Assembly (NCBI GenBank): GCA_937928795.1
Contig: CALFWB010000040.1
Span: forward strand, 98,496 to 162,495
Direction: 5' to 3'
From: an uncultured Anaerolineales bacterium
GTDB taxonomy: Bacteria > Chloroflexota > Anaerolineae > Anaerolineales > UBA4823
Length of the DNA stretch: 64,000 bases
Shown here piece after piece: positions 19,524 to 44,666 of the stretch. Numbering within the stretch: position 1 is the stretch's first letter; every line of letters starts with the position of its first letter. The position numbers and the translations under genes are program-made. The notes below the pieces were generated by a model. The model was not told the origin of the DNA. It saw only the letters and a program-made list of their open reading frames with translations, and did not search any database.

Positions 19524-19551
19524 TGTGATTATTTTACCAGCCAAATCTTGC

Positions 19552-21244: not shown

Positions 21245-21274
21245 GGCAATCACACAGTTTCTCGGTCGCGTCCC

Positions 21275-25012: not shown

Positions 25013-25076
25013 ATCTGATACAATCTCCTAGCAATTATTGTACCATGCTGTGTTTTTGCAGTTCGGTTGGGAAAAT

Positions 25077-25559
25077 ATGACACGAGCTAAGCCTTACCTT
25101 GGTTTAATCGGGGCAGTCTTTCTTGCTGGTTGTTTGGGGATAGGGGTCATTGCTCTTGTTAGGAGCGGAACGGCAACCCAAAGCGATCTCTATCCGACAG
25201 CGATCGTTGAAGTGATCCCTGCCCCGACCTTGACACCTTCTCCTCAACCTACCTTCTCAACGGCGCAACAAACAGGATCAACCGAGGTCGACAATGACAA
25301 CATCTCTGCAGACCAAATTCGGGTGGGCGATTCGGTTCAAATCTATGGCACCCAAGGGGATGGATTGCGGTTGCGGGCTGCGCCGGGTTTGGACGGTGAA
25401 ATCCTTTTTTTGGCTTTTGAGGGAGAAATTTTTCAGGTGGAAGATGGCCCTCGCCAAGCCTCCGGCTATGTATGGTGGTATCTAGCCGCACCATATGATG
25501 AAAACGTCCGGGGGTGGGCGGTTGAAAATTACCTCAAGGTTGTCGAAACTCAATACTAG
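25077..25559 (+). CDS. Membrane-anchored protein with a Pro/Thr linker and a C-terminal SH3b-like domain
   Basis: TM segment, then PTLTPSPQPT, then GLRLRAAPG...WWY....RGWAVENYL. Start reassigned to ATG 25077. Confidence 0.8.
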   Translation: MTRAKPYLGLIGAVFLAGCLGIGVIALVRSGTATQSDLYPTAIVEVIPAPTLTPSPQPTFSTAQQTGSTEVDNDNISADQIRVGDSVQIYGTQGDGLRLRAAPGLDGEILFLAFEGEIFQVEDGPRQASGYVWWYLAAPYDENVRGWAVENYLKVVETQY

Positions 25560-27277: not shown

Positions 27278-28180
27278 TTACTCCGAAGATGATTTTGAAA
27301 GAAATTTTACCAGAATCACCGAGATATTATCAGGACCACCGGCGTCATTAGCAAGTTGGATAAGGCGGTAACAGGACTCTTGTGGTTGTGAGGACTCTCG
27401 GATGGACTGGATGATTTGGCTCTCCGGCACAACGCTCCACAACCCATCTGAACAGAGGAGAAGATTGCCGGAGGATGGCAGGGGTATTGAAAAGATATCT
27501 GCTTCAAGTGGATCCGTTTGTCCTAATGCCCGATAAAGGACATTGCGTTGCGGATGATTTTGGGCTTCTTGTTCGGAAATTTGCCCTAATTCAACCAGAC
27601 GCTTAACCAAGGAGTGATCGCGAGTGTAGAGTTTGCTCTCTCCATCCTCGCCAATATAATAAGCGCGGCTGTCGCCAATATGGGCGATGGTCAAGGTTTT
27701 GGAAAAGACTAAACAGCAGGTCAAGGTAGTGCCACCTCCGCTGGCTTTTTGGATCACTTCCTGATGTGCCGTTAACATCGCTTCTTTGAGAATGGTGAGG
27801 AAGGAATTTTGAGGTTGGGGTGATGGCGGAGCAAATTGAGGGAAGAGCAATCGTTCGAGTAGGGTGGAAGCCAAACTGTGGATGGCTACTTTGCTGGCGA
27901 TTTCACCGTGCAGGTGTCCACCCATGCCGTCGGCAACGGCATAGATGCCGGCATTTCTGATCTGGTCTTGATAAGTGAGCGAGAACTCGAAAGTTAGGAG
28001 AGCGTCCTCGTTGAAATCGCGTTGCAGGCCTTTAGATTGAGCAAAGGCAGATTGCAGGCGCGGCTCTAAGATATCCACTGCCGAGTTGAGCGGCGGTTGG
28101 CTTGGAGGGGATTGATTGGGGGTTTGAGCAATCTTTTTGGGGGATCGTTGAAAGAGACTCTTCACACTGCTTATCTCCAA
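27278..28180 (-). CDS. PP2C/PPM family Ser/Thr phosphatase
   Basis: VADGMGGH, GTT, HIGDSRAY, CSDGL and GGPDN. Confidence 0.93.
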   Translation of the reverse strand: MEISSVKSLFQRSPKKIAQTPNQSPPSQPPLNSAVDILEPRLQSAFAQSKGLQRDFNEDALLTFEFSLTYQDQIRNAGIYAVADGMGGHLHGEIASKVAIHSLASTLLERLLFPQFAPPSPQPQNSFLTILKEAMLTAHQEVIQKASGGGTTLTCCLVFSKTLTIAHIGDSRAYYIGEDGESKLYTRDHSLVKRLVELGQISEQEAQNHPQRNVLYRALGQTDPLEADIFSIPLPSSGNLLLCSDGLWSVVPESQIIQSIRESSQPQESCYRLIQLANDAGGPDNISVILVKFLSKSSSE

Positions 28181-28183
28181 GAT

Positions 28184-30067
28184 TTAGGGTGAGGCCGGCA
28201 AGGCATACATCTTCCCATCCGTTGAACCGATATATACCCTGTCTTTGTCGATCAGAGGTGTTCCGGTAATCGGACCTGCGGTTTGGAATTTCCAAATTAA
28301 TGACCCGTTTTGGCTGTCGATGCAATAGAGATGCTGGTCAACCGAACCAAAATAAACCTTGCCCTCATAGGCAACCGCTGAGCCGGTAACTTGGTGTTCG
28401 GTCGTAAATCGCCATTGCTCTTTTCCACTGCGCATATCGATGCAATAAATGTTCCCATCGGTACACCCAATGAATAAATCGTTACCGCTCACACAAGGTG
28501 TTGAAATGGTAGGTTTTCCTAGGCGGAAACGCCAGACCTGCCAGCCGCTTTTAGCATCCAGAGCATAAACCATGCCGTCCAAAGAGCCGAAGTAAACGGT
28601 GCCGTTGACCACAATTGCCGAACCGGTAATTGCCCTTTTGGCTCTAAATCGCCAGCGAAGGATACCACGGAAGTCTAAGCAAAGAAAATCGCCATATTCA
28701 TTCCCAAAGAATAAGTTATCTTCGTAGATAAAGGGAGTAGTCCGAACAGGGGCGCCGCTGTCGAATTTCCAGGCTGCATTTCCCGAAGTCAGGTTGATGG
28801 CATGGATGTGAGTGTCATCCGACCCGATAAAAATGTGTCCACCGGACAAGACGGGAGAGGAATAGATTGGACCCTCCGTATAATACGACCAAAAAATCTT
28901 TCCGGAAAGTTGATTGACAACATGAAGGCGATGATCGGCAGATCCGACGATCACGTTACCATCTTCAATGATCGGGCGGCTGACAATAGGCCCATCGGTT
29001 TGATAGCGCCAAATCAGTTCGCCCTTGTTCCCATGCAGGGCATATAAGCTGCGATCGTAAGAACCGAAGAACAACCAACCGTCCTTATATGCCGCAGCGC
29101 CGCGAATTTCATCTTCGCAATTAAAGACCCAGAGAGGTTGGATTTTTTGAAGAGCAGTCTTGGCAGACTGATGAGGGGAATAAGTAGGTGCTCTCTTGCT
29201 CAGAATTGCTTCAAGCGCCATTTTCATATCTTTGGCAGATTGGAAGCGATCCATTGGGTCGTATTGCAGTGCCTTAAGGATGACTGCTTCTAACTCAGGC
29301 GGAACGGCGGGGTTGATCTGACGAATTGGTCTTTCTCCAAATGAAAAAGGCGCTTCTAGGCGCGGGTCACGTTTTGTTAAGAAGTGATGCAAGGTAGCTC
29401 CAAGAGAATAAATATCGGCAAGATGCGAGGCTTGGCCGCGGTATTGTTCGGGAGGCGAATAGCCTTCTGTCCCGACCATGGTGCCTTTTTGATCAGCTCG
29501 AAAAGGTTTGGCAATCCCAAAGTCGATTAGCATGACCCGCCCATATTGGTTGATCATCACATTCGAGGGTTTCATATCGCGAAAGATGATTGGTTCCGGT
29601 TGATGATTGTGGAGATAGCTTAGTACATCGCAGATTTCGATCGCCCATTGGATAACCTGTGGGATTGGAATGTTTTCTTCGATCAGGGCTTCTAGGGTCT
29701 TTCCATTGATTAGCTCTAAAACAAGGTAGGACCGGTCGTGGGCAGTAAAGTAATCGAAAATACGCGGGATGGCGGGATGGTCAAGGGTTGCCAACAAGTT
29801 CGCTTCTCGTTCGAAGTTGCGGATGATCGAAGCCCGCACAACCGGATCGCGCGTTTGGATGATCATTTCTTTTACGGCTACCTGCTTGACTACATTAGGA
29901 AAGTGCAGATCACGGGCTTTGTAAACGGCTCCCATCCCTCCAACCCCTAAGACACCCTCAATGAAATAGCGGTTGGCAAGGGTAGAGCCAATTTTGAGTT
30001 GATCGGTCGCAATATGCAACGATTGATCTACGGGTCTTTTTGAAGGATTAAACTGATCTTCAGTCAT
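28184..30067 (-). CDS. Ser/Thr kinase with a C-terminal PQQ-like beta-propeller
   Basis: GVGGMGAV, FRDMKPSN, DFG and YSPPEQ, followed by repeated W-x-F/Y...SSP...FGS..YAL units. Confidence 0.93.
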   Translation of the reverse strand: MTEDQFNPSKRPVDQSLHIATDQLKIGSTLANRYFIEGVLGVGGMGAVYKARDLHFPNVVKQVAVKEMIIQTRDPVVRASIIRNFEREANLLATLDHPAIPRIFDYFTAHDRSYLVLELINGKTLEALIEENIPIPQVIQWAIEICDVLSYLHNHQPEPIIFRDMKPSNVMINQYGRVMLIDFGIAKPFRADQKGTMVGTEGYSPPEQYRGQASHLADIYSLGATLHHFLTKRDPRLEAPFSFGERPIRQINPAVPPELEAVILKALQYDPMDRFQSAKDMKMALEAILSKRAPTYSPHQSAKTALQKIQPLWVFNCEDEIRGAAAYKDGWLFFGSYDRSLYALHGNKGELIWRYQTDGPIVSRPIIEDGNVIVGSADHRLHVVNQLSGKIFWSYYTEGPIYSSPVLSGGHIFIGSDDTHIHAINLTSGNAAWKFDSGAPVRTTPFIYEDNLFFGNEYGDFLCLDFRGILRWRFRAKRAITGSAIVVNGTVYFGSLDGMVYALDAKSGWQVWRFRLGKPTISTPCVSGNDLFIGCTDGNIYCIDMRSGKEQWRFTTEHQVTGSAVAYEGKVYFGSVDQHLYCIDSQNGSLIWKFQTAGPITGTPLIDKDRVYIGSTDGKMYALPASP

Positions 30068-30152
30068 CTTGAGTTCGTACGCTGATTGATTGAGTTATCA
30101 ATGTAATTGGCTATACTTTTTCTCTCCCCCTAAGTATAATTCGATTTTGACG

Positions 30153-31580
30153 ATGAACAAAGATGAGCTGAATTATCAATCTCCATTTTCGTGGAGGTAT
30201 GGTTCTGCTGAAATGCGGGCGATTTGGAGCGAGCGGCAGAAACACCTCCTTTGGCGCAAACTATGGTTCGTATTGGCAGAAACGCAAAGTGAATTTGGTT
30301 TAGTCAGTCCCGAGCAAATTCAGGATTTGAAGGTAAATCTTGAACGGATTGAACTGCAGCGGATTGCAGAAATCGAAGCGGAGCTCCAACACGACTTAAT
30401 GGCGGCTATAAAAGCGTATGCAGAACAATGTCCGCTAGGCGGAGGGATTCTTCACCTAGGGGCAACTTCTATGGACATCAAGGACAATGCCGATGCGATC
30501 CGAGTTTATGACTCACTGTTGGTAATTCGGCAAAGATTGGAGGAGTTGCTTGAAGCCTTTTGTGGGCAAATTGAAAGGTATGCTCAGGTGCCAGTGATGG
30601 CTGTCACCCATTTGCAACCTGCTGAGCCGACCACCTTAGGGTTTCGCTTGGCTCAGTATGCACAGGACTTGTGGATAGATTGGAAGGAACTGCTCCTCAG
30701 GTTGGAAGACTTTCGGATCAAGGGCTTTCGTGGGGCAGTGGGAAGCGATGCAGCCTACATAGAATTGATCGGTGAAGCCGAAATTGAGCGATTTCAAAGA
30801 CGTTTAGCCGAACGGATTGGATTAGCTTTCTTCGAGGTCACAACCCAAGTCTATCCGCGCAAGCAAGATTTTCGCATAGCCAGCCTATTGGCTGGAATTG
30901 GCGCTTCAGTTCATCGTTTTGCCCTGGATTTGCGCTTTTTACAGTCGGCGTTCATCGGTGAATGGGCAGAACCTTTTGGTGAGAGACAAGTGGGTTCGTC
31001 AGCCATGCCCTTTAAGCGTAATCCGATCCAGGCTGAAAAGATCAATGCTTTAGCCCGACAACTTGCCCAACTGCCACGTTTGGCTTGGGATCACGCTGCC
31101 CATTCGATGTTAGAGAACACGCTGGATGATTCGGCGAGCCGGCGTACCTTGTTGCCGGAGATGTTCCTGATCACGGATGAACTTCTCAAAACCGCTTTAC
31201 GAGTGGTGCGCAATTTGGTAATCCACGAGGAGAACCTGCGGCGCAATTTTGAACGTTTTGCATCCTTTGCCGCTACCGAAAGGGTACTTATGGCGGCTAC
31301 CCGAGCCGGGGCGAATCGCCAAGCAATCCATGAGGTATTGCGTCGCTTGTCCATGGAGGCTTGGGAGGACCTCCGCCAAAGCGGGATCAATCGGTTGGCT
31401 GAGAAAGTCATTCAGTCCCCCATCTTACTGAACTATCTAACCAAAGAACGGCTGGAGGAGTTGATGTCAGTCGAGGGGTATGTGGGTGATGCTCCACAGC
31501 GGAGCAGAAGACTTGTGGCTGCCATTCGCAGCGATTTAGAAAACGCTCGGGTGGACAACATTGGCAGAGTTCACCTATGA
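30153..31580 (+). CDS. purB: Adenylosuccinate lyase
   Basis: HDLMA, HLGATS, THLQPAEPTT and signature SSAMPFKRNP. Start reassigned to ATG 30153. Confidence 0.92.
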   Translation: MNKDELNYQSPFSWRYGSAEMRAIWSERQKHLLWRKLWFVLAETQSEFGLVSPEQIQDLKVNLERIELQRIAEIEAELQHDLMAAIKAYAEQCPLGGGILHLGATSMDIKDNADAIRVYDSLLVIRQRLEELLEAFCGQIERYAQVPVMAVTHLQPAEPTTLGFRLAQYAQDLWIDWKELLLRLEDFRIKGFRGAVGSDAAYIELIGEAEIERFQRRLAERIGLAFFEVTTQVYPRKQDFRIASLLAGIGASVHRFALDLRFLQSAFIGEWAEPFGERQVGSSAMPFKRNPIQAEKINALARQLAQLPRLAWDHAAHSMLENTLDDSASRRTLLPEMFLITDELLKTALRVVRNLVIHEENLRRNFERFASFAATERVLMAATRAGANRQAIHEVLRRLSMEAWEDLRQSGINRLAEKVIQSPILLNYLTKERLEELMSVEGYVGDAPQRSRRLVAAIRSDLENARVDNIGRVHL

Positions 31581-31597
31581 TGTCCACCCGTTAGAGA

Positions 31598-32593
31598 TCA
31601 TTCTCGCCAATCTTTTTCGGGGCGAGGTTTGTTATCCAAAATTTCTTCGATTTTTGCCATGACTTCGTCTGTAAGCTTGGGGACGACTTCCAACGCGTGC
31701 ATGTTCTCGCGAACTTGCTGCGGCTTGGATGCACCGGTAATCACGGTGCTGACATTGGGATTTTTCAGGCACCAGGCAATGGCAAGTTGAGCCAAGGTAC
31801 AGCCGACTTCTTTGGCAATGTCGGCTAAACGCTTGACAGCCGCCACTTTTTTCTCAAAAGCCTCGCCTTGAAAGCGCTGACGCAGCCATTCGTAACCCGG
31901 CAGAGAAAGACGGCTGCCTTCTGGAATGCCTTCATTATACTTCCCGGTCAGCAAGCCGCTGGCGAGTGGGCTCCAAATGGTAGTCCCCAATCCAATCGTA
32001 CGATACAGATGGGCATATTCAGCCTCAACTCGCTGGCGAGCGAACATGTTGTATTCGGGCTGCTCCATCACCGGCGGGATGAGGTGCTCTCGGCGGGCTA
32101 TGCCGTAAGCCTCCATGATTTGGGCTGCGCTCCACTCACTCGTGCCCCAGTAAAAAGCCTTCCCTTGCTGGATCAGCAAATTCATTGCCCAAACGGTTTC
32201 TTCAATGGGAGTATACAGGTCGGGACGGTGGCAGAAGACCAAATCGACATAGTCCATTTGTAGCCGTTTCAGCGAGGCGTTCATGCCTTCCATGATGTGC
32301 TTCATGGATAAGCCTCGATCGTTGGGTCCCTCACCCCCCCAAAAAATTTTGGTGGAAATGACCAAGTCAGATCGTTTCCAACCAGCTTTTTTGATGATAT
32401 TCCCCATCATGATCTCGGCTTTGCCCTTCGAGTAGACTTCAGCGTTATCGAAGAAGTTGACTCCTGCCTCGTAAGCTTCTTTCATACAAGCAAAAGCGAC
32501 ATCCTCATCAACTTGGTCTCCAAAGGTTACCCATGAACCAAAAGAGAGAGCAGAGAGCTTTAAGCCAGTTTTGCCGAGAAAGCGATATTCCAT
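31598..32593 (-). CDS. Aldo/keto reductase (Kv-beta-like)
   Basis: [15 protein letters not shown] and [13 protein letters not shown]. Confidence 0.93.
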
Positions 32594-32612
32594 AGTTGCA
32601 CTCCTTTCTTTG

Positions 32613-33422
32613 TTAGTTTGAAGTTTGTTTCAATTGAATTTTATCCATTCCTTCCTTAAGGTATTGTGGAGAAGCGGCGGCCAAAATGGCATAATCTTGT
32701 GAGGAATAGTCAACACCGCCTTGGATAGGAAAGGGCGAACTGCCATTTAGGGGGGCAATTACGCCGCCGGCTTGAGGGACAAGCAGCCAGGCGCCGGCGA
32801 TGTCCCAAATCTTGGCTTGAGCATCAAAAGCAATCCGAGCTGCACCGCGAGCGACACTTGCCATAGAATAGCCAGCACTGCCCAAAATTCGCATTTTGTA
32901 CCGAAGATGGATTTCATACTTCCTCGTTGCTCGAGAACAGCAGGAGAAGAACGATGTTCTTTGATCATTGTTCGATTCTTCGACATGAATAATCCGATCG
33001 TTGAGTCTCGATGGCTCACCCAACTGAGCTTGGTAGAACTCTTCCAACGCCGGGAAATACTGGACGGTGAACGCGGGATACCCGTTTTCAATCCGACTGA
33101 CTAGGACACCCCAATAATGCAAACCTAGAGCAAAGTTAGTTGTTCCATCTAAAGGGTCTATAATCCATCCCCATTTTGAGGCGGACTGGAAGGTCGGCGA
33201 TACTTCCTCACTCAAGATGAAATCGTGGCTGAAATTCTTTTGAATTTCTGTGTGGATCAGTTCATCAGCAGCAAGGTCGGCTTGGGTGACAAGGGTATGG
33301 TCTTTCTTTCGTTGAACAGATAGTTGTCCTTTTTGGAAATACTCCAAGAGCAGTTTACCCACCCTTCTGGTCAGGTATGTGGCAAATTCGATTTCTGCTG
33401 GGGCGGTTGAGAAGGATAGCAA
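32613..33422 (-). CDS. Inositol monophosphatase family phosphatase
   Basis: [17 protein letters not shown] and WDIAGA. Confidence 0.9.
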
Positions 33423-33436
33423 AGTCGGTGATTCTC

Positions 33437-35425
33437 CTATGCTGGATAGATCATTTCGATATAGTCTTTGGTGACGTTGTTTTCCGGTGACCCACCCAGT
33501 AAACGGATAAGGTTAGCGGCGATTTCCGCTTTATATTCGGCATCGCGCTTGCTCCACGTGCGGCTCTTGACTTCTAGGAAATAGCCGAGGTTAGGGTTCT
33601 CGAGATGGTCAAGGTTGATGTAAACTTCTGTGCCCTGAAACAGTACCCGCCAGCGGAGGCGGTCTTTCACAATCGAGACTTCTTGAATGGGTTTGAAATA
33701 TTCACGATAGAAGCGCAAGCTATGCGTGGCAGGGGCAATATAGCGACTTCGGGAGAGTAAAACATCTCCATCAAATCGGGCTTCGCGTGGATGACCTAAT
33801 AAAGTTAGGCGATAACGAACATTGGCGATGTTTCCTTTCTCATCAAGTAATTCATCTTCCCGATAACGCAAATATCCCTGCTTGGGATCGGAGAAGAAGA
33901 AGTAGGTGTCATATTCATGGTAGTGGCGAAAGTAGAGAATTTCTAGATCATTTCGAGAGATAGCTTCAAGGATCGGTTTGGGGTCTTGAATCTGAACCTT
34001 GACCTGAACCTCAAAACTTTCCGCTTCTGTGGCACCGCCAATGGCAATCAGTTTTGAGAGAACAGATTGTTCTCTTTTGATGAGGAAGAGATCAACTTTT
34101 CGAGCAACCTCTTGAGCTTGACTCCTTAATTCGTCCTCATCTAAGCCGATCAATTGGCGATTGCGCATCAACCACTTACCGTTGACCATCACATCGGTTA
34201 CATCATTTTTGTTTGCTGCGTAAACCAATTGAGCGTAAATTCCGTGATCGTCGCGGCGGAAGTGAGGTACATTGTGCAGGGAATTGATGTCTACCAAAAT
34301 TAAGTCGGCGCGCTTTCCCACCTCTAGGGAGCCGGTTAAGTGAGCGATGTGAAGCGCTTTTGCTCCTAAATGGGTTGCCATACTTACCGCTTGATGGGCT
34401 GGCAACGCAGTGGGGTCGTTGCTGACCCCTTTTGCTAATAAAGCAGCTAAACGCATTTCCTCGAACATGTCTAAATCGTTATTTGAAGCGGGCCCGTCTG
34501 TACCGATTCCGACATTGAGCCCGACCTCTAACATTCTACGCACTGGAGCAAACCCAGAGGCTAATTTTAGGTTCGAGGAAGGATTATGCGCAACGCCCGC
34601 GTTGTGATGGCGTAAGGTGTGAATTTCGCCATCGTCAACGTGAACGCAGTGGGCAGCTAATACTTTTGCTTCAAATAGGTTTTGTTTTTTTACGTAAGGA
34701 ATGACCGGCATCCCATGTGCAGCGCGCGATTCTTCAACTTCGTTGGCTGTCTCTGCCAAATGAATGTGGAGCGGGACGTCGAATTCTTGGGCTAATGCGG
34801 CTGAAGCGCGCAAGATTTCGGCAGTGCAGGTATAGGGAGCATGGGGGGCGACAGAAGGGACAATGAGAGGGTGTCCAACCCAATGTGAGATATAATCACG
34901 AGCAATGGCTAACGATTCCTCGTAGTACGGCGCATCGGGAGCCGGAAACTTAAGCACGGTTTGAGAACAAACGGCTCTCATCCCAACCTCTGCGGTGGTT
35001 TTGGCGATATGCTCTTCAAAATAGTACATATCGGCGAAACAAGTGACCCCACAGCGGATCATCTCAGCAAGGGCTAGCTTTGTGCCGAGAGTCACAAAGT
35101 CCGGTGAGACGAATTCCCTCTCAACGGGCATCATATAGCCTAGCAGCCATACATCGAGGCGCAAGTCATCTGCCAAGCCGCGTAACAAAGTCATGGGAAC
35201 ATGCGTATGGGCATTGATCAAACCCGGCATGATCACTTTGTTTCCACAATCGATTGTCGTTGGGGATTCATAACGCTCCAGGATTTGTTTTTCGTCTCCC
35301 ACGGCAAGAATTTGATCTCCCTGGATTGCAATAGCGCCACATGCATATTGCGTCAGGTTCTCATCCATCGTCAAGATGATCCCATTCGTCAAGAGTATAT
35401 CGACCGTTATTTTTGAAGTGTCCAC
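33437..35425 (-). CDS. MTA/SAH-deaminase-like amidohydrolase fused to a C-terminal CYTH domain
   Basis: HTH, HAPYT, HLAET, AHCVH and GTDGPASNN in the amidohydrolase part. C-terminal ~190 aa carry EVQVK, DTYF, LRYR and FLEVK. Confidence 0.85.
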   Translation of the reverse strand: MDTSKITVDILLTNGIILTMDENLTQYACGAIAIQGDQILAVGDEKQILERYESPTTIDCGNKVIMPGLINAHTHVPMTLLRGLADDLRLDVWLLGYMMPVEREFVSPDFVTLGTKLALAEMIRCGVTCFADMYYFEEHIAKTTAEVGMRAVCSQTVLKFPAPDAPYYEESLAIARDYISHWVGHPLIVPSVAPHAPYTCTAEILRASAALAQEFDVPLHIHLAETANEVEESRAAHGMPVIPYVKKQNLFEAKVLAAHCVHVDDGEIHTLRHHNAGVAHNPSSNLKLASGFAPVRRMLEVGLNVGIGTDGPASNNDLDMFEEMRLAALLAKGVSNDPTALPAHQAVSMATHLGAKALHIAHLTGSLEVGKRADLILVDINSLHNVPHFRRDDHGIYAQLVYAANKNDVTDVMVNGKWLMRNRQLIGLDEDELRSQAQEVARKVDLFLIKREQSVLSKLIAIGGATEAESFEVQVKVQIQDPKPILEAISRNDLEILYFRHYHEYDTYFFFSDPKQGYLRYREDELLDEKGNIANVRYRLTLLGHPREARFDGDVLLSRSRYIAPATHSLRFYREYFKPIQEVSIVKDRLRWRVLFQGTEVYINLDHLENPNLGYFLEVKSRTWSKRDAEYKAEIAANLIRLLGGSPENNVTKDYIEMIYPA

Positions 35426-35437
35426 GGGTTTTCCTTT

Positions 35438-36580
35438 CTAGAGATTACGAAGAATGTCAAACGCGTGATTAACAGCCCAACGAGGCGCGTTTTGTGGCGG
35501 TCCTCCATAAGGTTTGGTGAAGGTTTGTTGAGTGTGGGGAGTGATCAGGTGAAGATAGACTTCCTGCGTCTGAACGCCAGAGAGAATAAGAACCCCCAAG
35601 CCACATTCAGCTTTGGAATACTGGCGAAACGAGGCGGTTAGAGCAAAAAAATCCTCAGGCAGATAGGATGTTGTTAAGTACTGGCCTGCAATGAAGGGTT
35701 CCCCATGCGGGGAAAGACGTTGGATGAGCATCCCCTGAGTGCCGCTTTCACAGGTTGCCAAGTGCCAACGATTCTCCTTGATTGGGCGTAGAGCGATGGT
35801 TTCAATGGACTCGTCATCTGCCCCATAGATCCAATTGCCCATGCGCTTACGAATTTCTTGTTCCATTTGCCAAATCTGCTGGTCGGCTTCGGTTTGACTA
35901 GATGCTTTTACTGCAATGCGGATATCAACCTGACCTGCGTGAGCAGCTAGGCCGACCGTTGGGTTTGAGGAGGTTTCTAGATCGGCAATTTTGCTGTCGA
36001 TCAACGACTCTCCGATCCCAATTGTATGCAGAACCCGTGTTTTGATGAATTCCTGTAAGTTAAGTCGCTTTCTAAGATAGGGAAGTACACTGCTCTGCAT
36101 CAGGTATTCCATTTCCCGAGGGACTCCGGGGAGACAGATAACGATTTTGTCTTCCCGATCGACAATAAAAGCCGGGGCAGTCCCCACCGGATTTTCTATT
36201 GGGATGGCTCCTTGAGGTAGAAATGCCTGCCTGCGATTATTTTCGGTGGGAATCCTACCAAAGCGACGAAAACGTTCTTGGATTTGTTCCCATAAGGCAG
36301 GGTGGTACTCAAGATCGACCCCAAACGCTAGGGCAACAGCTTCTCGGGTAGGATCATCAATAGTTGGACCCAATCCACCGGTCGACAAGATCACCTGACA
36401 ACGAGAGAAAGCTTCGCGAAGAAAAGCCGCAATTCGCTGAGGGTTATCTCCGACAGTGGTTTTGCGGTAAACATCCAACCCGATGTCCCGCAGTTGTCGA
36501 GCGAGATAAGAGGCATTGGTATCGGTGATTTCACCTAATAGGATTTCGGTTCCAATGGTCAGAATTTCTGCAGATGTCAT
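35438..36580 (-). CDS. cinA: CinA family protein (intact molybdopterin-binding-like N-domain, degenerate PncC C-domain)
   Basis: GTEILLG..DTN, VGDN, GGLGPTIDDPT and LPGVPREM. Confidence 0.88.
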   Translation of the reverse strand: MTSAEILTIGTEILLGEITDTNASYLARQLRDIGLDVYRKTTVGDNPQRIAAFLREAFSRCQVILSTGGLGPTIDDPTREAVALAFGVDLEYHPALWEQIQERFRRFGRIPTENNRRQAFLPQGAIPIENPVGTAPAFIVDREDKIVICLPGVPREMEYLMQSSVLPYLRKRLNLQEFIKTRVLHTIGIGESLIDSKIADLETSSNPTVGLAAHAGQVDIRIAVKASSQTEADQQIWQMEQEIRKRMGNWIYGADDESIETIALRPIKENRWHLATCESGTQGMLIQRLSPHGEPFIAGQYLTTSYLPEDFFALTASFRQYSKAECGLGVLILSGVQTQEVYLHLITPHTQQTFTKPYGGPPQNAPRWAVNHAFDILRNL

Positions 36581-36657
36581 AAGCTACCGAGATTTCTTAG
36601 ATTGTATCAGCCTTTTGTGAAGCTTGATGACCGATTCTACACCCTCTTAAGGGGGTT

Positions 36658-37674
36658 ATGGTAGAATCTTTTGGTATGGATGTGCAGAGTGAGCCTATAA
36701 AGCCAGAGCCGCCGAGCTTAGTTGGCGCCTTGCGTAAGGGTTTCGATGCGGTCGCCAATCATCTCTTTGTCGTTTTGTTTCCGATCGGATTGGATGTTTT
36801 TTTGTGGTTGGGTCCTCGTCTTAAGGTTACGCGCTTGGTGGAGCGGATCCTCTTGAGTTGGAATGAGTTCTATTCAAACAGTTCATTCCCGAACGAAGAC
36901 GCCCTAAACGTGGGGCAGCAAGCATGGAATATAATTGGAGAGCGGTTAAATCTTTTTATTTTTCTACGCTCTTATCCGGTCGGTGTATTTAGCTTAATGG
37001 CAGGGGTTCAACCGCTGCGCTCGCCTCTGGGCGAGCAATTTGTGATCCAGGTTAATTCGTTTGAGGCAGTGCTCCTTGCATGGTTTGCTTGCTCCCTGGT
37101 TGGCATCTTGGCAGCCAGCATTTATTTTGCACTCGTTGCACAAGCGGCAGTAAATGAGTCAGTCAATTGGATTGATTCGGTGAAATCTTGGATTCGAAAT
37201 AGCCTACAGGTTTTGCTTTTGACGATCTTCTGGTTTTCGGTTATTGCAATGGTCGGCTTGCCATGTAGTTGTTTGATTTCTTTTTTGACCTTTGGGAATT
37301 TAGCCGCAGCTCAATTTGGGATTCTTGTCCTGATAGGTGTTCTAGTGTGGTTGCTGCTGCCGTTGTTTTTCTCTCCTCATGGTATTTTTGTCAATCGCGA
37401 GGATGTTTGGAAGGCAATTAAGCGAAGCATTAACCTGACTCGATTTACTTTTCCAAATACGCTATTTTTAGTCGTGATAGTGTTTGCAATTGGGGAAGTA
37501 ATGGACATAATCTGGCGATTTCCAGAAGAAACCTCATGGTTGACCTTGATAGGAATTGCCGGGCATGGTTTTGTTACCAGCGCTCTACTGGCGACAACCT
37601 TTGTGTATTACCGAGATGCAATGCTCTGGATGAATGCGGTTCTACGAAGAGTAGAAACCGTCTCAGCATCCTAA
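36658..37674 (+). CDS. Multi-pass membrane hypothetical protein (start may be ATG 36676)
   Basis: About six hydrophobic segments. Extended -10 TGG-TAGAAT at 36659-36667. Confidence 0.75.
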   Translation: MVESFGMDVQSEPIKPEPPSLVGALRKGFDAVANHLFVVLFPIGLDVFLWLGPRLKVTRLVERILLSWNEFYSNSSFPNEDALNVGQQAWNIIGERLNLFIFLRSYPVGVFSLMAGVQPLRSPLGEQFVIQVNSFEAVLLAWFACSLVGILAASIYFALVAQAAVNESVNWIDSVKSWIRNSLQVLLLTIFWFSVIAMVGLPCSCLISFLTFGNLAAAQFGILVLIGVLVWLLLPLFFSPHGIFVNREDVWKAIKRSINLTRFTFPNTLFLVVIVFAIGEVMDIIWRFPEETSWLTLIGIAGHGFVTSALLATTFVYYRDAMLWMNAVLRRVETVSAS

Positions 37675-39731: not shown

Positions 39732-41810
39732 ATGGTGCTTGAGCGCGGTGCGTTAGTCAATCAGCGTTATCGAATCATCGAAATCCTCGGGCAGGGGGGG
39801 ATGGGCGCAGTCTACCGCGCCATTGACGAGAATTTAGGGGTTGAGGTTGCCTTAAAAGAAAATTTGTTTACCACTGAGGAGTATGCGCGTCAGTTTCACC
39901 GCGAGGCAGTCATCCTAGCCAATTTACGTCATCCGAACTTAACCCGAGTCACCGATCACTTCATCATCGAAGGGCAAGGGCAATACTTAGTGATGGATTA
40001 TGTAGAAGGGGAAGATTTGCGCGATCGGATGGAGCGGCTGGGGGTGATCTCAGAGGAGGAAGCGGTGCAAATTGGGGCTGCAATTTGTGATGCGTTAACC
40101 TACCTCGATACTCGAACCGAGCCGATTGTCCATCGCGATATCAAGCCGGGTAACGTGAAAATCTCTCCCAATGGTCACATCTACTTAGTAGATTTTGGCT
40201 TGGCGAAAATCATTGAAGGGAATGAGGTAACAACTACTGGGGCGCGAGCGATGACGCCCGGCTATTCTCCGCCCGAACAATATGGCACTGCTCGCACCGA
40301 TCATCGTTCGGATATTTATTCGCTCGGGGCTACGCTTTATGCTGCGGTAACCGGCCATCTACCTGAAGATGGCTTGGCAAGATTAATGGGTCAAGCAGAA
40401 TTGACCAAAGTGCGAGTGAGGAACCCAAAGATTTCTCCAGCCTTTGCTGCGGTAATTGAGAAAGCCCTAGAAGTTAAGCCAGAAGACCGCTACGCCAATG
40501 CAAGAGAGTTCAAGGAGGCTCTGCTTGAGTCCCAGCGCAACCGAGACAAAGTAACTCAGCAAGAAATCAACCAGCATCTCTCCGCAACCCGTCCAAAAAC
40601 ATCTCCAGCAGAGTATGTAAGAACGCTGCAACGTTTCTTGCCGATTTTTTTTCAAAAAAGATGGTTTTATTTACCGTTGTGGGTTTGGGGCATACTAGCA
40701 TTGTTTGTGATCGGATCGGCAATCTGGTTACCATCCAGAGGTACGTCCCCCGCAATGTCTGTCTCGCCTTTGGCAGGAACGACCATGCCCTTTCCAATGG
40801 TTGCCACTCCATCCCAAACGATGAAAGTCACAACTTTTCAACCGACCGGCCAAGCGTCGTTGGTTAACACATCAACCCCCACCTTTCTTCCTTCCCTGAC
40901 CCCCCTTGGGGGAATTGTAGCCGAGGAAACCCCAACTCCGACGGTCTCGCCCACACCCTTTGGTGGTAGTCAGGGGCAAATTGCCTTTGCTTCTAATCGC
41001 TCGGGTACTAATCAGATTTGGTTAATGAATCTGGATGGTAGCGGTTTAACCCAAGTGACCGATATTCCAGAAGGAGCTTGTCAACCCAATTTTTCTTCGG
41101 ATGGAATGAGGTTGATTTTCATCTCTCCGTGTCCGGATGATAGTGAAAGCTATCCGGGCTCTGGGATGTTTCTGATCAATGTAGATGGGACGAACTTAAC
41201 TCCTTTACCCAATGTGCCGGGGGGCGATTATGACCCGGCTTGGTCTCCGGATGGGAACTGGATTGTCTTTACATCATTGCGGGTGACCAATCGCCCGCGC
41301 ATTTACTTGATGAATACCCAAACTTTGGAGGTGAAAAGGTTATCAGATGAGTTTAGCCGCGACTATCAACCCTCTTGGTCTCCGGATGGTACGAGGATTG
41401 TTTTTGTCTCGCGCCGCCAAGGACCTACTGATCTGTGGGTTATGAATCCTGACGGTTCTGGACAGCAACGGTTGACTCTGAGTGGAACCAAAATTAATGC
41501 TTCGCCTAAATGGTCGCCGGATGGGAAGTTGATTGTCTTTACCCAAGCCTTAAAACCCGGTGGAGTACCCAACTTGGCGGTATTTTCGAACGTGGAAGGT
41601 AAAACCGTTGAGTATGGTTTCAATCTGGGACCTACCCCGGTTCGTGACCCGGTATTTTCTCCCGATGGCTTGTGGATTCTCTTCACCAGTTGGCCAAGTG
41701 GAAGAAATCATGATATTTACCTGATTGCAGCCAACGGCGCAGTTAAAACCCAAATAACGGATTTCCCATCCAAAGAATTTGATCCGGCGTGGCGACCGAT
41801 TGGGCCTTAA
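39732..41810 (+). CDS. Transmembrane Ser/Thr kinase with an extracellular TolB/PD40-like beta-propeller
   Basis: HRDIKPGN, DFG and YSPPEQ, then a TM segment, a Pro/Thr linker, and repeated PxWSPDG motifs. Confidence 0.93.
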   Translation: MVLERGALVNQRYRIIEILGQGGMGAVYRAIDENLGVEVALKENLFTTEEYARQFHREAVILANLRHPNLTRVTDHFIIEGQGQYLVMDYVEGEDLRDRMERLGVISEEEAVQIGAAICDALTYLDTRTEPIVHRDIKPGNVKISPNGHIYLVDFGLAKIIEGNEVTTTGARAMTPGYSPPEQYGTARTDHRSDIYSLGATLYAAVTGHLPEDGLARLMGQAELTKVRVRNPKISPAFAAVIEKALEVKPEDRYANAREFKEALLESQRNRDKVTQQEINQHLSATRPKTSPAEYVRTLQRFLPIFFQKRWFYLPLWVWGILALFVIGSAIWLPSRGTSPAMSVSPLAGTTMPFPMVATPSQTMKVTTFQPTGQASLVNTSTPTFLPSLTPLGGIVAEETPTPTVSPTPFGGSQGQIAFASNRSGTNQIWLMNLDGSGLTQVTDIPEGACQPNFSSDGMRLIFISPCPDDSESYPGSGMFLINVDGTNLTPLPNVPGGDYDPAWSPDGNWIVFTSLRVTNRPRIYLMNTQTLEVKRLSDEFSRDYQPSWSPDGTRIVFVSRRQGPTDLWVMNPDGSGQQRLTLSGTKINASPKWSPDGKLIVFTQALKPGGVPNLAVFSNVEGKTVEYGFNLGPTPVRDPVFSPDGLWILFTSWPSGRNHDIYLIAANGAVKTQITDFPSKEFDPAWRPIGP

Positions 41811-41879: not shown

Positions 41880-44666
41880 ATGATGGCGATGATTGGCTGG
41901 ATTCTGGCGATCCTTGGGCAGGGGGGTATCTTTTACTTGGTGTTTCGGTTTTTACGGCTAACTCGGCGCCGAGGTTTATGGTTTGGATTGCTAGGATTGC
42001 CTCTCTTGGTAATCCTTTGGTTTGGGTATGAACTATTTCAACCGGGGCGGGAGCGTCTTTTATCTGCGTTTTTAGCGGCAGGAATCTCTATACTCAGTTC
42101 TGGGTTACTTTGGTTTCTGTTACCCTCAACAAAGGATGCTTTCACACAGTATGACCAAATCCTTGCCGAAAAAGATGAGTACCAACGAATCTTGGAACAG
42201 TTAGCGGCTCCTGTCGTCCTCAAAGACCTTGCTTTGAATTATCGCAAAGTGAACTTGAGCTTTGCTCACATGATCGGGAAGGCCGTTGAGCTACTGATCG
42301 GCCGTTCGGATGCCGATTTCTTCCCGCCAAAAATTGCCCAAGTGCTTGAGGAAGACGAAAGGAGAGCTATTGAAAGCAAGCAACCGGTAACTCGCCGAAT
42401 CGAATTAATGACGGTCAAAGGCAAACGCTGGTTTGACTTAACGTTTACACCCTTGATGGATAAATTAGGAATGACGCTGGGGGTGATCGTTGACGGTCAT
42501 GATCTCACCGATCTTGTTGAAAGAAATCAAATCTTAGAGAGCGACCTTCACCTGAAGGACGTTTTAGTTGATGCGGTTCGGAAGGTATTTGCTTGTGATA
42601 GCGAAGCGGAGCTTTGGGATGTTACGTTAGAGTTGATGGAGGAAATTGGTGATACCCCATATGTGGCTTTGGCAGTTGCCTCAGAAAATGGAGAGTTCTT
42701 CATCGTTGAAGGTTCTCGCAAAGCGGAGGTCTTTCAAATTGGGAGGTCTATTCGAGCTGCGGGGAGTCTCTTTGAGAAAGTTGCTCGGAGCGGCCAAATC
42801 CAAATATTTGAGGACACCTCAAGTTGGAGAGATGTTGTTCAGGGGGAGGAGGGAGCTGGATTGCAATGGGCAATTGGGCTGCCAATTGATCTGGATGACC
42901 GTGTTTTGTGCGTAGTGGCTTTGTTTTATCATCAGCCAGAAAAAGAGATGGTTGAACGCAGGAAGGGGGTATTTCTTGAAGGAGTTAGGCTGGTGAGTTT
43001 AGCCTTGAGGGAGCTATACGCTAAGCGTACAATGGAACAACGCTTAGCGCACGCCCGCAAGGACTTAGAACAGACTATATTGCGTCAACGCGTCGATCAC
43101 TTCCTAACTGCCTTAGCGATTCGGTTAGTGAATACGTCACCACGTCAAGTTGATCCTTTATTAGAAAAGGCAGTAGGAAGTTTTGCAGAATATTTTGACG
43201 CCGAAAAAAGTTATGTCTATCTATTCAAAAAAGAAGAAGGGGGGTTACAAGCACAATATCGTTGGTCTCGGTTCAATAGATTGTTACCACCTACAGAGAT
43301 TCCGGAGCCTTTCGATGCGGCAGTCTCGTGGTTATTAGAGAAGATTAATCGTCAAGAAGTTGTTGTCCTTTCTCGGTCGGGCGAGATTCCAGAGGCATTT
43401 CAAGTCTATTTTGATGCTCAGCAAATTGATATTCTCATAGCTGTTCCAATGGTTTTGCGCCGAACCGTGGTCGGCTATTTTGGACTAGAGGGCAATCACG
43501 ATGCGGTGGAAAAAATTTCCGATCAGATTGGCGCGATAAAGTCTATGGCCGATTTGATCATCAATGCTTTGGATCGAAAATGGAGCTCGGATGAGTTGGA
43601 AGAACGAATGAAAAGTTTGACCGAGAAAATGTCGCACCTTGAATTGCACAATCAACGGAATAAAATGTTAGCAGAGATGAGTGATTTGCTGCAATCTTGT
43701 CGGACGGCCGATGAGGCTTATCCAATTGTGGCCCGTTATGCCCAAATGCTGATGCCCCAAAGTGTCGGATCACTTTATTTGTTGCGCTCGCTTCAAGACG
43801 TGGCAGAAAAGGTCTCTCACTGGGGAAATGAGCCTAGTGGTGAGAATGAGTTGGTGTTGGACGAGTGCTGGGGGATTAGGCGAGGGAAAGTCCATCTCGC
43901 TCGAGATGCGCAGGGACCTCTCTGTGACCACTTAGGAACTCCGCTTCCTAAGCGATATATCTGTGTGCCATTGATCGCTCAAGGTGAAACGATTGGGTTG
44001 TTACACATTCGGCAAGCAGGGGATGGATCTGACAATGAGGATGGCTTGGAAGAGATGAGCAAGATCGGGGTGTCAATCGCCGAGCATGTTGCTCCGGCAT
44101 TATCGAATTTGAGTCTGAGGGATAAGCTGCGTAGCCAAGCCATTCGTGACCCATTAACTGGCTTATTCAACCGAAGATATATGGAAGAGACGTTAGATCG
44201 CGAAATCCGACGGGCAGCTCGCCATAAATATTCGGTTGGATTGATCATGGTTGACGTTGACAAAATGAAACCGATCAACGATCGCTATGGCCATGATGCG
44301 GGGGATGCGGTGCTCCGTCAGATGGGTGCCTTAATGAAAAAGATCTTCCGCGGGGAGGATGTTGCCTGCCGCTATGGAGGAGATGAGTTCATGGTAATCC
44401 TACCCGAAGCTTCTCTCTCGGATGTTTGGCAAAGGGCAGAACATTTGCGTGAAATGGTCAAGAAGGCCCAATTTGAGTACGAGGGCAAACCGATAGGACC
44501 GCTTACCCTCTCAATCGGCGTTGCGGCTTATCCCGATCTCGGATCAACTGTCGAGCGGTTGATCCAAGTCAGTGATGCAGCCGCCTATTTAGCCAAGCAT
44601 GAGGGGGGCGATCGCGTGATGATCGCTCACCATACCGACGAGAATAACAACAACAGTAGTTCTTAG
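41880..44666 (+). CDS. Membrane-anchored diguanylate cyclase (PAS, GAF-like domains, GGDEF)
   Basis: DPLTGLFNRRY, I-site RGED, and an intact RYGGDEF. Confidence 0.92.
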   Translation: MMAMIGWILAILGQGGIFYLVFRFLRLTRRRGLWFGLLGLPLLVILWFGYELFQPGRERLLSAFLAAGISILSSGLLWFLLPSTKDAFTQYDQILAEKDEYQRILEQLAAPVVLKDLALNYRKVNLSFAHMIGKAVELLIGRSDADFFPPKIAQVLEEDERRAIESKQPVTRRIELMTVKGKRWFDLTFTPLMDKLGMTLGVIVDGHDLTDLVERNQILESDLHLKDVLVDAVRKVFACDSEAELWDVTLELMEEIGDTPYVALAVASENGEFFIVEGSRKAEVFQIGRSIRAAGSLFEKVARSGQIQIFEDTSSWRDVVQGEEGAGLQWAIGLPIDLDDRVLCVVALFYHQPEKEMVERRKGVFLEGVRLVSLALRELYAKRTMEQRLAHARKDLEQTILRQRVDHFLTALAIRLVNTSPRQVDPLLEKAVGSFAEYFDAEKSYVYLFKKEEGGLQAQYRWSRFNRLLPPTEIPEPFDAAVSWLLEKINRQEVVVLSRSGEIPEAFQVYFDAQQIDILIAVPMVLRRTVVGYFGLEGNHDAVEKISDQIGAIKSMADLIINALDRKWSSDELEERMKSLTEKMSHLELHNQRNKMLAEMSDLLQSCRTADEAYPIVARYAQMLMPQSVGSLYLLRSLQDVAEKVSHWGNEPSGENELVLDECWGIRRGKVHLARDAQGPLCDHLGTPLPKRYICVPLIAQGETIGLLHIRQAGDGSDNEDGLEEMSKIGVSIAEHVAPALSNLSLRDKLRSQAIRDPLTGLFNRRYMEETLDREIRRAARHKYSVGLIMVDVDKMKPINDRYGHDAGDAVLRQMGALMKKIFRGEDVACRYGGDEFMVILPEASLSDVWQRAEHLREMVKKAQFEYEGKPIGPLTLSIGVAAYPDLGSTVERLIQVSDAAAYLAKHEGGDRVMIAHHTDENNNNSSS

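Follow-up and report, generated by a model that had tools for sequence, protein, structure and literature searches.

An MtaD-type deaminase of Anaerolineae-type Chloroflexota carries a divergent CYTH domain with a rebuilt, probably non-catalytic tunnel site

Introduction

Why should a nucleoside deaminase carry a triphosphate tunnel at its C-terminus? The question is raised by a gene in a 64,000-nucleotide stretch of DNA from an uncultured Anaerolineales bacterium (GenBank assembly GCA_937928795.1, contig CALFWB010000040.1, positions 98,496 to 162,495), which, at its full length, we call the window. By the list of open reading frames (ORFs) and their translations, the gene is a single ORF on the reverse strand (33437..35425) of 662 codons plus a stop, with a GTG start. 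Its product matches the Pfam family Amidohydro_1 over residues 64-419 (E 1.3e-73), and the reading frame continues stop-free for 216 further residues. CYTH domains, which form triphosphate tunnels (TTM), are ancient and widespread, yet what most of the bacterial members do in the cell has still to be established, and those that have been studied were almost all treated as enzymes. As explained below, we incline to a different role for this tail, namely that it would bind a phosphate-bearing ligand and thereby tune the deaminase.

The initial annotation, made from the sequence alone, described a deaminase that runs in frame into a CYTH-like domain, and this architecture holds: both domains can be assigned within the one 662-residue ORF. 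Residues 1-445 (34091..35425; this and all further features of the gene lie on the reverse strand) form an MtaD-type amidohydrolase (deaminase) domain, as judged from Amidohydro_1 and matches in the Protein Data Bank (PDB). Conservation and a full-length model place a helical linker, LFLIKREQSVLSKLIAIGGA, at residues 446-465 (34031..34090), and residues 466-662 (33440..34030) are assigned to a divergent CYTH, or triphosphate-tunnel, domain from a structural model, Foldseek, VIA-align and hhalign. The fused gene is real and not an artefact of assembly or a frameshift, because the same architecture was found in 7706 of 8000 scored candidates from a word-indexed search with the tail (E<=1e-3) and in 81 of 401 genomes of the phylum.

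The tail is predicted to form a CYTH tunnel barrel

Similarity to known CYTH proteins is too low for Pfam to detect the domain in the window's copy. Searches with the tail alone, at E<=10, gave no match in Pfam or (with phmmer) in the PDB, and a profile of the whole family found only two chance-level matches in the PDB (hmmsearch, E 0.52 and 1.8). The lone family match of the window's tail was a weak one to TIGR00318 (cyaB), with E 6.5e-4 and 19.6 bits against a cut-off of 57.95, and it covers tail residues 140-213 only. Among 21 homologues, 11 matched the CYTH family PF01928 at E<=1, the best of them at 6.9e-6, and the gathering score of 23.2 bits was exceeded by the homologue P0136 (27 bits) and by the fused genes at three related loci (L147, L148 and L151; 33.5-35.9 bits). 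When the family profile was aligned by hhalign to nine canonical single-domain CYTH proteins from the same class, the probability was 90.6% (E 1.3e-6, 162 columns); against one lone canonical CYTH sequence it was 5%.

An AlphaFold model of the tail, built from 21 sequences, has a predicted local distance difference test score (pLDDT) of 91.1 and a predicted template modelling score (pTM) of 0.86, and consists of a run of long strands followed by a C-terminal helix. Foldseek matched this model to the solved CYTH/TTM structures 2fjt, 3n0z and 7ns9 at E 4e-8. In structural alignments with VIA-align, PH1819 (2een) had a Z score of 17.8, with a root-mean-square deviation (rmsd) of 2.5 Å over 169 residues; the class IV adenylate cyclase of Y. 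pestis scored 16.1-16.6 (16.6 for 3n0z), SaTTM (7ns9) 16.1 and Arabidopsis TTM1 (7z67) 14.4. SaTTM (7ns8/7ns9), PH1819 and Y. pestis CyaB (2fjt/3n0z) thus share the eight-stranded tunnel fold predicted for the tail, with Z scores of 16-18 and an rmsd of 2.2-2.6 Å over 164-169 residues. Among look-alikes from the ESM Atlas, the top cluster (score 0.92) was from Chloroflexota, with CYTH annotated on 15% of its members. Because the Pfam matches of the homologues, the profile-profile alignment, the Foldseek matches of the model and the VIA-align Z scores agree, we assign residues 466-662 to the CYTH/TTM fold, which is here predicted to comprise an eight-stranded tunnel barrel with a C-terminal plug helix. 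Unlike SaTTM, PH1819 and Y. pestis CyaB, which are single-domain enzymes, the tail was met as part of a fusion, with no clear stand-alone form among the representatives aligned and scanned (see below).

The catalytic site of the tunnel appears to have been rebuilt

We assessed conservation in a family set of 104 full-length sequences, comprising the window protein, 101 genome loci, P0128 and P0233, in which the lowest identity to the window protein in the CYTH domain is 26%. (The corresponding tree adds P0280 to this set, which makes 105 rows, 102 of them distinct.) P0233 and P0280 represent a second, deeply divergent clade that is 40% identical overall and 26-30% identical in the CYTH domain, and that keeps both E-x-Q-x-K and E-V-K-S-R, the two altered motifs described next.

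The first of these motifs corresponds to the ExExK signature, which the initial annotation had correctly read as EVQVK. It lies at residues 472-476, where E472-V-Q474-V-K476 (33998..34012) aligns to the canonical E5-x-E7-x-K9. All 104 sequences have E-x-Q-x-K at this place: the second Glu has become Gln474, and the other two signature residues, the first Glu and Lys, are unchanged. The second altered motif is the ExE of strand beta-8, where E618-V-K620-S-R622 (33560..33574, translated as EVKSR) places E618 and K620 opposite the canonical E134 and E136. This motif is E-x-K in 104/104 sequences, the second Glu being replaced by Lys620. Each of the nine canonical CYTH proteins used for comparison, all from the same class, has Glu opposite both Q474 and K620.

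The basic residues of the tunnel have fared differently. R520-Y-R522 (33860..33868, translated as RYR) aligns to R56/R58 of the canonical phosphate-binding xRxR motif, and K587 and R589 align to the canonical KxR; all four residues are present in every sequence of the set. Tail positions that are invariant in 104/104 include E472, Q474, K476, D506, Y508, R520, R522, E523, T541, R559, R561, K587, R589, N604, D606, E618, K620, R622 and W624. Basic residues specific to the family are R537, R539, R559, R561, R591, K620 and R622. The tail thus has in common with SaTTM, PH1819 and Y. pestis CyaB the first Glu and the Lys of ExExK, the RxR and KxR motifs, the first Glu of ExE and the plug-helix Tyr; unlike these enzymes, it has Q474 and K620 in place of two metal-binding Glu residues, a hydrophobic residue for the Lys of LTxK, and extra invariant Arg residues.

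The meaning of these exchanges can be gauged from what is known of the two metal sites. In PMC8233210, the first Glu of the beta-8 ExE is described as the central ligand of metal 1 throughout the family, with metal 1 serving binding and charge neutralisation, and the second Glu as a ligand of metal 2 that is necessary for catalysis in TTMs and thiamine triphosphatases. Judged by alignment, the ligand of the water-activating metal 2 has therefore been replaced in the tail, and the metal-1 Glu residues (E472 and E618) are kept. The residues expected to bind a metal-triphosphate, namely these Glu and the basic residues, appear to be retained. Since conservation is strict down to 26% identity, including the divergent clade of P0233 and P0280, the pattern suggests a working binding site and not a decaying one, and the catalytic site would have been rebuilt rather than lost. 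The initial annotation had named the loss of the tunnel's basic and metal residues as the outcome that would leave the tail inert; what we find is divided, in that the basic residues are kept but only half of the metal ligands remain.

The same conservation bears on another explanation, in which the tail would be a scaffold for structure or oligomerisation that holds no ligand and only stabilises the deaminase. There is precedent for such a use of the fold, as the CYTH fold in Mediator Med18/20 is purely a protein-interaction scaffold. Med18 and Med20 are indeed among the structural matches to the tail (Z 11-13), and the acidic catalytic residues of the tail are partly lost. A scaffold would have no need, though, for a dozen invariant charged residues at positions that border the tunnel in solved CYTH enzymes, and these are found in all 104 sequences, including a clade with only 26-30% identity. 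The plug-helix Tyr655 is kept in 100 of the 104. We find this explanation improbable.

Sequence signatures also allow the tail to be compared with the named enzyme classes of the family. PMC8233210 gives HFxxxxExExK as the mark of true class IV adenylate cyclases, which also put a small residue in place of the first Arg of xRxR and Ala in place of the second Glu of ExE; in thiamine triphosphatases, a Trp or Tyr stands two residues before that Arg. No HF pair was found before ExExK in the 104 sequences (position 466 is M in 38, T in 21, E in 11, I in 7 and other residues in the remainder; position 467 is E in 88 and Q in 14). The aromatic residue of the W/YxRxR form is not conserved in the family either, as the residue at position 518 differs among the 104 sequences (51 have R, 13 Y, 13 W, 8 Q and the remainder others). 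We considered a thiamine triphosphatase and discarded it on these motif tests, given Lys for the second Glu of ExE and the lack of a conserved aromatic at position 518. A class IV adenylate cyclase fails on all three of its signatures: there is no HF, R520 is kept in 104/104, and position 620 is Lys and not Ala.

A cyclase-like tail had been proposed in the initial annotation, in which a product of the tail would be acted on by the deaminase to yield an inosine-type cyclic nucleotide. In its favour, the Y. pestis class IV cyclase is among the top structural matches, the only family model that the window's tail matches is cyaB, and the second residue of ExE is not Glu, as in cyclases. Because the three cyclase signatures fail, however, the cyclic-nucleotide idea is unsupported, and the TIGR00318 score is far under its cut-off. 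Moreover, the invariant E102 of the deaminase domain aligns with the conserved P-x-E of MtaDs, whose Glu we take to bind the free ribose hydroxyls and which would therefore suit a 3',5'-cyclic substrate poorly. We regard a cyclase as very improbable indeed, and weak cyaB-like matches in this family should not be taken to indicate adenylate cyclase. With Gln474 and Lys620 in 104/104 sequences, the broader proposal of a tail that works as a triphosphate enzyme is unsupported as well.

The deaminase domain and its junction with the tail

Judged by its sequence, the N-terminal part of the protein is a zinc amidohydrolase with its catalytic residues intact. It is of the MtaD type and falls in the group that deaminates 5'-methylthioadenosine (MTA), S-adenosylhomocysteine (SAH) and adenosine. 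The closest solved relative is the MTA/SAH deaminase 4f0r (E 7.1e-95 over residues 29-439 in a PDB sequence search), and further ones are 4dzh (7e-94), 3lnp (6e-90), 4dyk/4gbd (2e-87; 2.2e-87 for 4dyk) and Tm0936 (1p1m, 1.5e-68). Over residues 8-444, the domain resembles the MTA/SAH deaminases 4f0r/4f0s (which we take to be from Chromobacterium violaceum), 4dzh (presumably Xanthomonas), 4dyk/4gbd (PA3170, presumably of P. aeruginosa) and 1p1m/2plm (Thermotoga Tm0936), with E values from 7e-95 to 1.5e-68. These solved proteins are about 400-470 aa long and have no C-terminal domain, whereas the window protein has the CYTH tail. The metal-binding and catalytic residues of the MtaD group (HxH, His, the Glu of HxxE, His and Asp) are all intact in the window protein. 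The HxH motif is H73-T-H75 (35201..35209, translated as HTH), with both His residues present in 103 of the 104 sequences (the remaining one has a gap), and E102, H222, E225, H259 and D310 are found in 104/104. This full-length likeness, together with the complete set of catalytic residues, bears out the intact MTA/SAH-deaminase-like enzyme of the initial annotation. Since the domain falls below every equivalog cut-off in NCBIfam (the best score is 469.4 bits against 540 for PRK09045, and the bifunctional MTA/SAH deaminase model PRK15493 gives 318.5 bits against 779), we call it MtaD-type without naming a substrate.

The junction between the two domains is conserved as well. Linker residues F447, L448, R451, S454, K458 and L459 are each at least 97% conserved in the family set. 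A full-length model of all 662 residues, built from 70 sequences (pLDDT 91.6, pTM 0.88), has linker helices at residues 430-451 and 455-462, and its sole weak stretch is around residues 545-565. Because this pTM is higher than expected for a freely placed tail of 197 residues, the model suggests a fixed arrangement of deaminase and tail. Pairwise distances in the N-terminal and C-terminal domains are correlated (r 0.75 over 5356 pairs).

The fused family also has residues of its own in the deaminase domain that set it apart from the solved MtaDs. R103 is R or K in 104/104 sequences and K159 is K in 100 of them, whereas the aligned positions in solved MtaDs are G/A/A/G and E/D/D/D, respectively, and none of eight unfused homologues has K at position 159. 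In addition, seven of the 15 conserved N-domain positions that are specific to the fusion fall within residues 89-110, beside E102.

The host genome (3.29 Mb, 128 contigs, 93% complete) has other enzymes for related tasks. It encodes an 8-oxoguanine deaminase and SsnA, which both pass their cut-offs, another MtaD/DadD-like deaminase, which does not, AhcY, three phosphorylases of the PNP family, and an Add-type adenosine deaminase. With the usual routes for SAH, MTA and adenosine provided by these other host genes, there is room for a specialised role of the fusion. The host further encodes a canonical CYTH protein of 203 aa with intact ExExK and ExE motifs (P0276; L008:1495-2103, contig C59), directly after ORFs that resemble the C-terminal part of biotin carboxylase and a biotinyl-carrier-like protein, so the fusion's tail is not the cell's sole tunnel enzyme.

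One specialised role that these observations could suggest is that the tail holds the substrate. The tunnel would then grip the polyphosphate of an adenine nucleotide (ATP, diadenosine tetraphosphate (Ap4A) or similar) with the adenine in the deaminase site, and phosphorylated adenosine would be deaminated. The basic residues R103 and K159 lie near active-site loops and are absent from solved MtaDs, seven of the fusion-specific positions cluster beside E102, the high pTM suggests that the domains are held in a fixed arrangement, other host enzymes already serve the standard MtaD substrates, and a phosphoesterase distantly related to Ap4A hydrolase is encoded directly 3' of the fusion at some related loci (see below). 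Equally, however, R103 and K159 could be contacts at the domain interface or to the carboxylate of SAH, and production of ITP-type nucleotides would, we expect, be harmful unless tightly controlled. Deamination of phosphorylated adenosine is, to our knowledge, not known for the MtaD group. Also, Tm0936 deaminates SAH, MTA and adenosine only, according to PMC5676521. A substrate-holding tail therefore seems to us distinctly unlikely.

A candidate metabolite-sensing module, by analogy with plant TTM1/2

The closest parallel that we see to the architecture as a whole is in plants. As described in PMC9582702, Arabidopsis TTM1 and TTM2 consist of a nucleoside kinase, a short rigid helical linker and a TTM domain in which Glu of ExExK is changed to Gln. 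No metal is seen in the structure of the TTM domain, which holds citrate between conserved basic residues, contacts the kinase tightly and pushes into its substrate site (PMC9582702). The authors consider the domain catalytically incompetent and proposed that it binds a (tri)phosphate metabolite and controls the kinase (PMC9582702).

The window protein resembles TTM1/TTM2 (7z67) in the order of its parts, with a nucleoside enzyme at the N-terminus, then a short helical linker, then a CYTH barrel at the C-terminus, and, for one of the two Glu of ExExK, in the change to Gln with the basic residues of the tunnel kept. The structural alignment with 7z67 (Z 14.4) even extends over the linker helix. 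There are also differences. The partner in TTM1/TTM2 is a P-loop domain resembling uridine/cytidine kinases, whereas in the window protein it is a zinc amidohydrolase deaminase; both Glu residues of ExExK are changed in the plant proteins, but only the second in the window protein, which has the altered ExK of beta-8 in addition. Furthermore, the window protein is bacterial and, unlike TTM1/TTM2, has no predicted membrane anchor. The resemblance is thus one of how the protein is built, and not of family membership.

With this analogy in mind, the explanation that we moderately favour is that the tail is a non-hydrolytic module that binds a phosphate-bearing ligand, is packed on the deaminase and tunes it. 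The deaminase most likely would turn adenosine-type nucleosides, which arise as by-products of S-adenosylmethionine use, into their inosine forms. The tail would bind a small ligand that carries phosphates (tripolyphosphate, pyrophosphate or a nucleotide triphosphate) and would neither hydrolyse nor cyclise it. Packed rigidly on the deaminase, it could then tune or gate the activity of its partner, and so act as a metabolite-sensing module.

Several points weigh against this explanation. The position of the canonical LTxK Lys is I, L, V or T in 104/104 sequences, so one basic residue of the canonical tunnel has been given up. That the invariant Arg and Lys residues, including the extra ones at 537, 539, 559, 561, 591 and 622, face the tunnel is read from the alignment to solved CYTH proteins and not from geometry, and so is the place of the tunnel with respect to the zinc site. 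The usual roles of MtaD could be covered elsewhere in the cell, and the substrate of the fusion may differ from the one supposed above. Finally, both metal-1 Glu residues survive, so that chemistry with one metal is possible, and low pyrophosphatase activity of Arabidopsis TTM1/2 in vitro is recorded in PMC9582702.

The last of these points leads to a rival, in which the tail is an atypical but active phosphohydrolase (a tripolyphosphatase or pyrophosphatase). One metal would sit on E472 and E618, Lys620 would partly stand in for metal 2, and the enzyme would clear tripolyphosphate (PPPi) or pyrophosphate (PPi) alongside deamination of the adenosyl by-products. Both metal-1 Glu are invariant, as are five of the six basic residues of canonical tunnels, members of the TTM family use one or two metal ions, the plant proteins retain their low activity despite the Gln (PMC9582702), and strict conservation of the site suits catalysis as well as binding. 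On the other hand, the metal-2 Glu, which PMC8233210 gives as necessary for catalysis in TTMs and thiamine triphosphatases, is Lys in 104/104, and canonical CYTH proteins of the same class have Glu at both changed positions (9/9). In the TTM of Clostridium thermocellum, Ala in place of any of these Glu residues reportedly abolishes activity, which likewise counts against hydrolysis. We rate an active phosphohydrolase as unlikely, though worth keeping in view.

The binding module that we favour could be given a more specific form, in which the altered tunnel is a dedicated receptor. It would either read a triphosphate signal, such as ATP, PPPi, polyphosphate or an alarmone like (p)ppGpp, and thus switch the clearance of adenosyl by-products, or grip the polyphosphate of an adenine nucleotide for deamination of phosphorylated adenosine. 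In either case, Lys620 in place of metal 2 would make this a metal-sparing, binding-only CYTH tunnel in bacteria. This more specific proposal is speculative, and we think it rather unlikely as formulated.

What is new here is a CYTH domain with a rebuilt and, judging from its residues, probably non-catalytic site on a new partner enzyme. A strictly conserved tunnel, in which exchanges of Glu for Lys and for Gln have rebuilt the water-activating metal site, is tied to a nucleoside-salvage deaminase across a bacterial lineage. Should the tail indeed sense a ligand, it would be a bacterial counterpart of the plant TTM1/2 design, and would offer a tractable, soluble system in which to study the ligands of inactive tunnel domains and their control of partner enzymes.

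The fusion is a conserved gene of Anaerolineae-type Chloroflexota

The fused gene is strongly conserved and belongs to Anaerolineae-type Chloroflexota. The family profile matches 81 of 401 Chloroflexota genomes, always in a single copy and with all E values below 1e-85; these matches include 80 of 323 high-quality genomes and 36 of 218 genera. At the level of taxonomic families, the gene is present in all or nearly all sampled genomes of some (24/24, 25/25, 8/9) and in none of others (0/17, 0/16, 0/28), so in several families every sampled genome has it. The open frame is at least 657 aa long in 79 of the 81 matches, and the remaining two (347 and 474 aa) are truncated by contig ends and are not split genes. 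A pattern scan of species-representative genomes confirmed relatives in at least 583 of them; among the best 80 loci of these, 79 carry labels of Chloroflexota lineages and one is labelled 'uncultured bacterium'. Outside this group, one partial member of the cluster of the divergent P0233/P0280 clade is labelled as a Thermotogota metagenome-assembled genome (MAG) and named 'CYTH domain-containing protein'.

In five close relatives that lack the fusion, an unfused orthologue is absent, and the best homologue of the N-terminal domain is only 33-40% identical; the fused gene is thus present or absent as a unit. The family is also compact and sharply separate from other CYTH proteins, since an exhaustive phmmer pass over 1.84 billion representatives at 50% identity gave just 251 matches at E<=1e-3.

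Existing names do not reveal the architecture. The 120 candidates listed from the word-indexed search are 69-100% identical in the tail; most have about 640-675 aa, and a few are shorter fragments. Named entries among these 120 go under 'amidohydrolase' (in MAGs of Anaerolineae or Chloroflexota) or 'MTA/SAH deaminase', and a precomputed CYTH match is present in one of the 120. Such labels conceal a third of the protein.

We also looked for the tail apart from the deaminase. Of 15 representatives scanned for domains, 11 have Amidohydro_1, P0240 has Glyco_hydro_77 only, and P0261, P0156 and P0155 match no family. We aligned 20 of the 150 representatives listed, and the short ones among these either start within the end of the amidohydrolase (MRDRQLLTLDE...) or are truncated. 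P0156, with 228 aa on a contig of 1996 nt, may be a stand-alone form or a cut one. No clear stand-alone form of the tail was seen among these 20 aligned and 15 scanned representatives, which does not exclude that one exists. In word searches of the literature aimed at CYTH fusions and architectures and at residues of the deaminase, we found no paper that describes a deaminase-CYTH fusion, although the sequence network of PMC8233210 may already contain the family. A different CYTH fusion, of 659 aa, was seen in another genome (G428; L150:115-2091, reverse strand), and starts with a canonical CYTH domain (MEIETKF...).

Genomic neighbourhood

In the window, the fusion is the second of four co-oriented genes on the reverse strand, which the initial annotation had taken to be a metabolite-repair operon. 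Directly upstream, and probably co-transcribed with it, is a cinA-like gene with MoCF_biosynth and CinA_KH domains (35438..36580; Pfam and NCBIfam). Directly downstream is a gene for an IMPase-family phosphatase (32613..33422; Inositol_P, E 5.5e-45, with all NCBIfam equivalogs under their cut-offs), and the run ends with an aldo-keto reductase of the Kv-beta type (31598..32593; Aldo_ket_red, E 5.6e-76; TIGR01293, 408.7 bits, above cut-off). The intergenic gaps are 12, 14 and 19 nt, in agreement with the co-orientation that had been noted, and the start of the fusion, 12 nt past the cinA-like stop, is immediately preceded by a ribosome-binding-like AAAGGAA stretch. In a scan of 31300-36900, promoter-like elements numbered 2 against 5.4 expected and terminator-like elements 9 against 5.9 expected, with none at the gene borders.

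To what extent this arrangement is conserved can be seen from the best 80 of the at least 583 related loci. Among the 65 loci with enough upstream DNA, 35 have a cinA gene immediately upstream in the same orientation; an IMPase gene is adjacent in 11 of 76, and an aldo-keto reductase gene lies within 1.5 kb in 14 of 73. Within three genes of the fusion, cinA is found in 44, IMPase in 25 and the aldo-keto reductase in 23 of 79 loci (L081 was left out of this count, as no fusion ORF was found there). The link to cinA is therefore real yet not universal. As for the repair operon, the co-oriented run stands, but it is conserved only in part, and the operon remains a weakly supported proposal.

Two other genes recur directly 3' of the fusion. 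One, present at 13 of 79 loci (for example, L053:7665-8516 and L073:7657-8511), encodes a calcineurin-type metallophosphoesterase and is separated from the fusion by a median of 3 nt; its best solved relative is 3rqz (E 3e-14), the SapH Ap4A hydrolase 3qfm is a distant one (E 2e-5), and the gene is not in this window. The other encodes a predicted membrane protein of 343 aa that matches no Pfam or NCBIfam family; it follows the fusion at 12 of 79 loci (for example, L071:1732-2763), at a median distance of 13 nt.

Some further features of the surrounding DNA deserve mention. The last ~125 residues of the cinA-like protein (380 aa) have no Pfam match to the CinA/PncC deamidase at E<=0.1, and its nicotinamide mononucleotide (NMN)-deamidase half may be lacking or divergent. 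A purB-like adenylosuccinate lyase gene (Lyase_1 and ADSL_C; 30090-31580, forward strand) converges on the aldo-keto reductase gene, with 17 nt between the gene ends, and 16 of the 80 related loci have a downstream homologue of it on the opposite strand. An ORF of 338 aa (36658-37674, forward strand), divergent from the cinA-like gene, is conserved beside gyrB in 10 related loci; like ORFs of 173 aa (25038-25559, forward strand) and 221 aa (44663-45328, reverse strand), it has no Pfam match at E<=1e-6. Three Hanks-type Ser/Thr kinases, of which one has a PQQ-like beta-propeller and one has PD40 repeats, and a PP2C phosphatase are encoded within 18 kb around the co-oriented run; the genes lie at 23903-25012, 27278-28180 and 28184-30067 on the reverse strand and at 39732-41810 on the forward strand. 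A PAS-GAF-GAF-GGDEF protein of 928 aa (41880-44666, forward strand) is a putative diguanylate cyclase with sensor domains. Finally, a RecG helicase gene, two DegV-family genes and a gene for a FakA-like fatty-acid kinase form one co-oriented run at 17064-22960 on the reverse strand.

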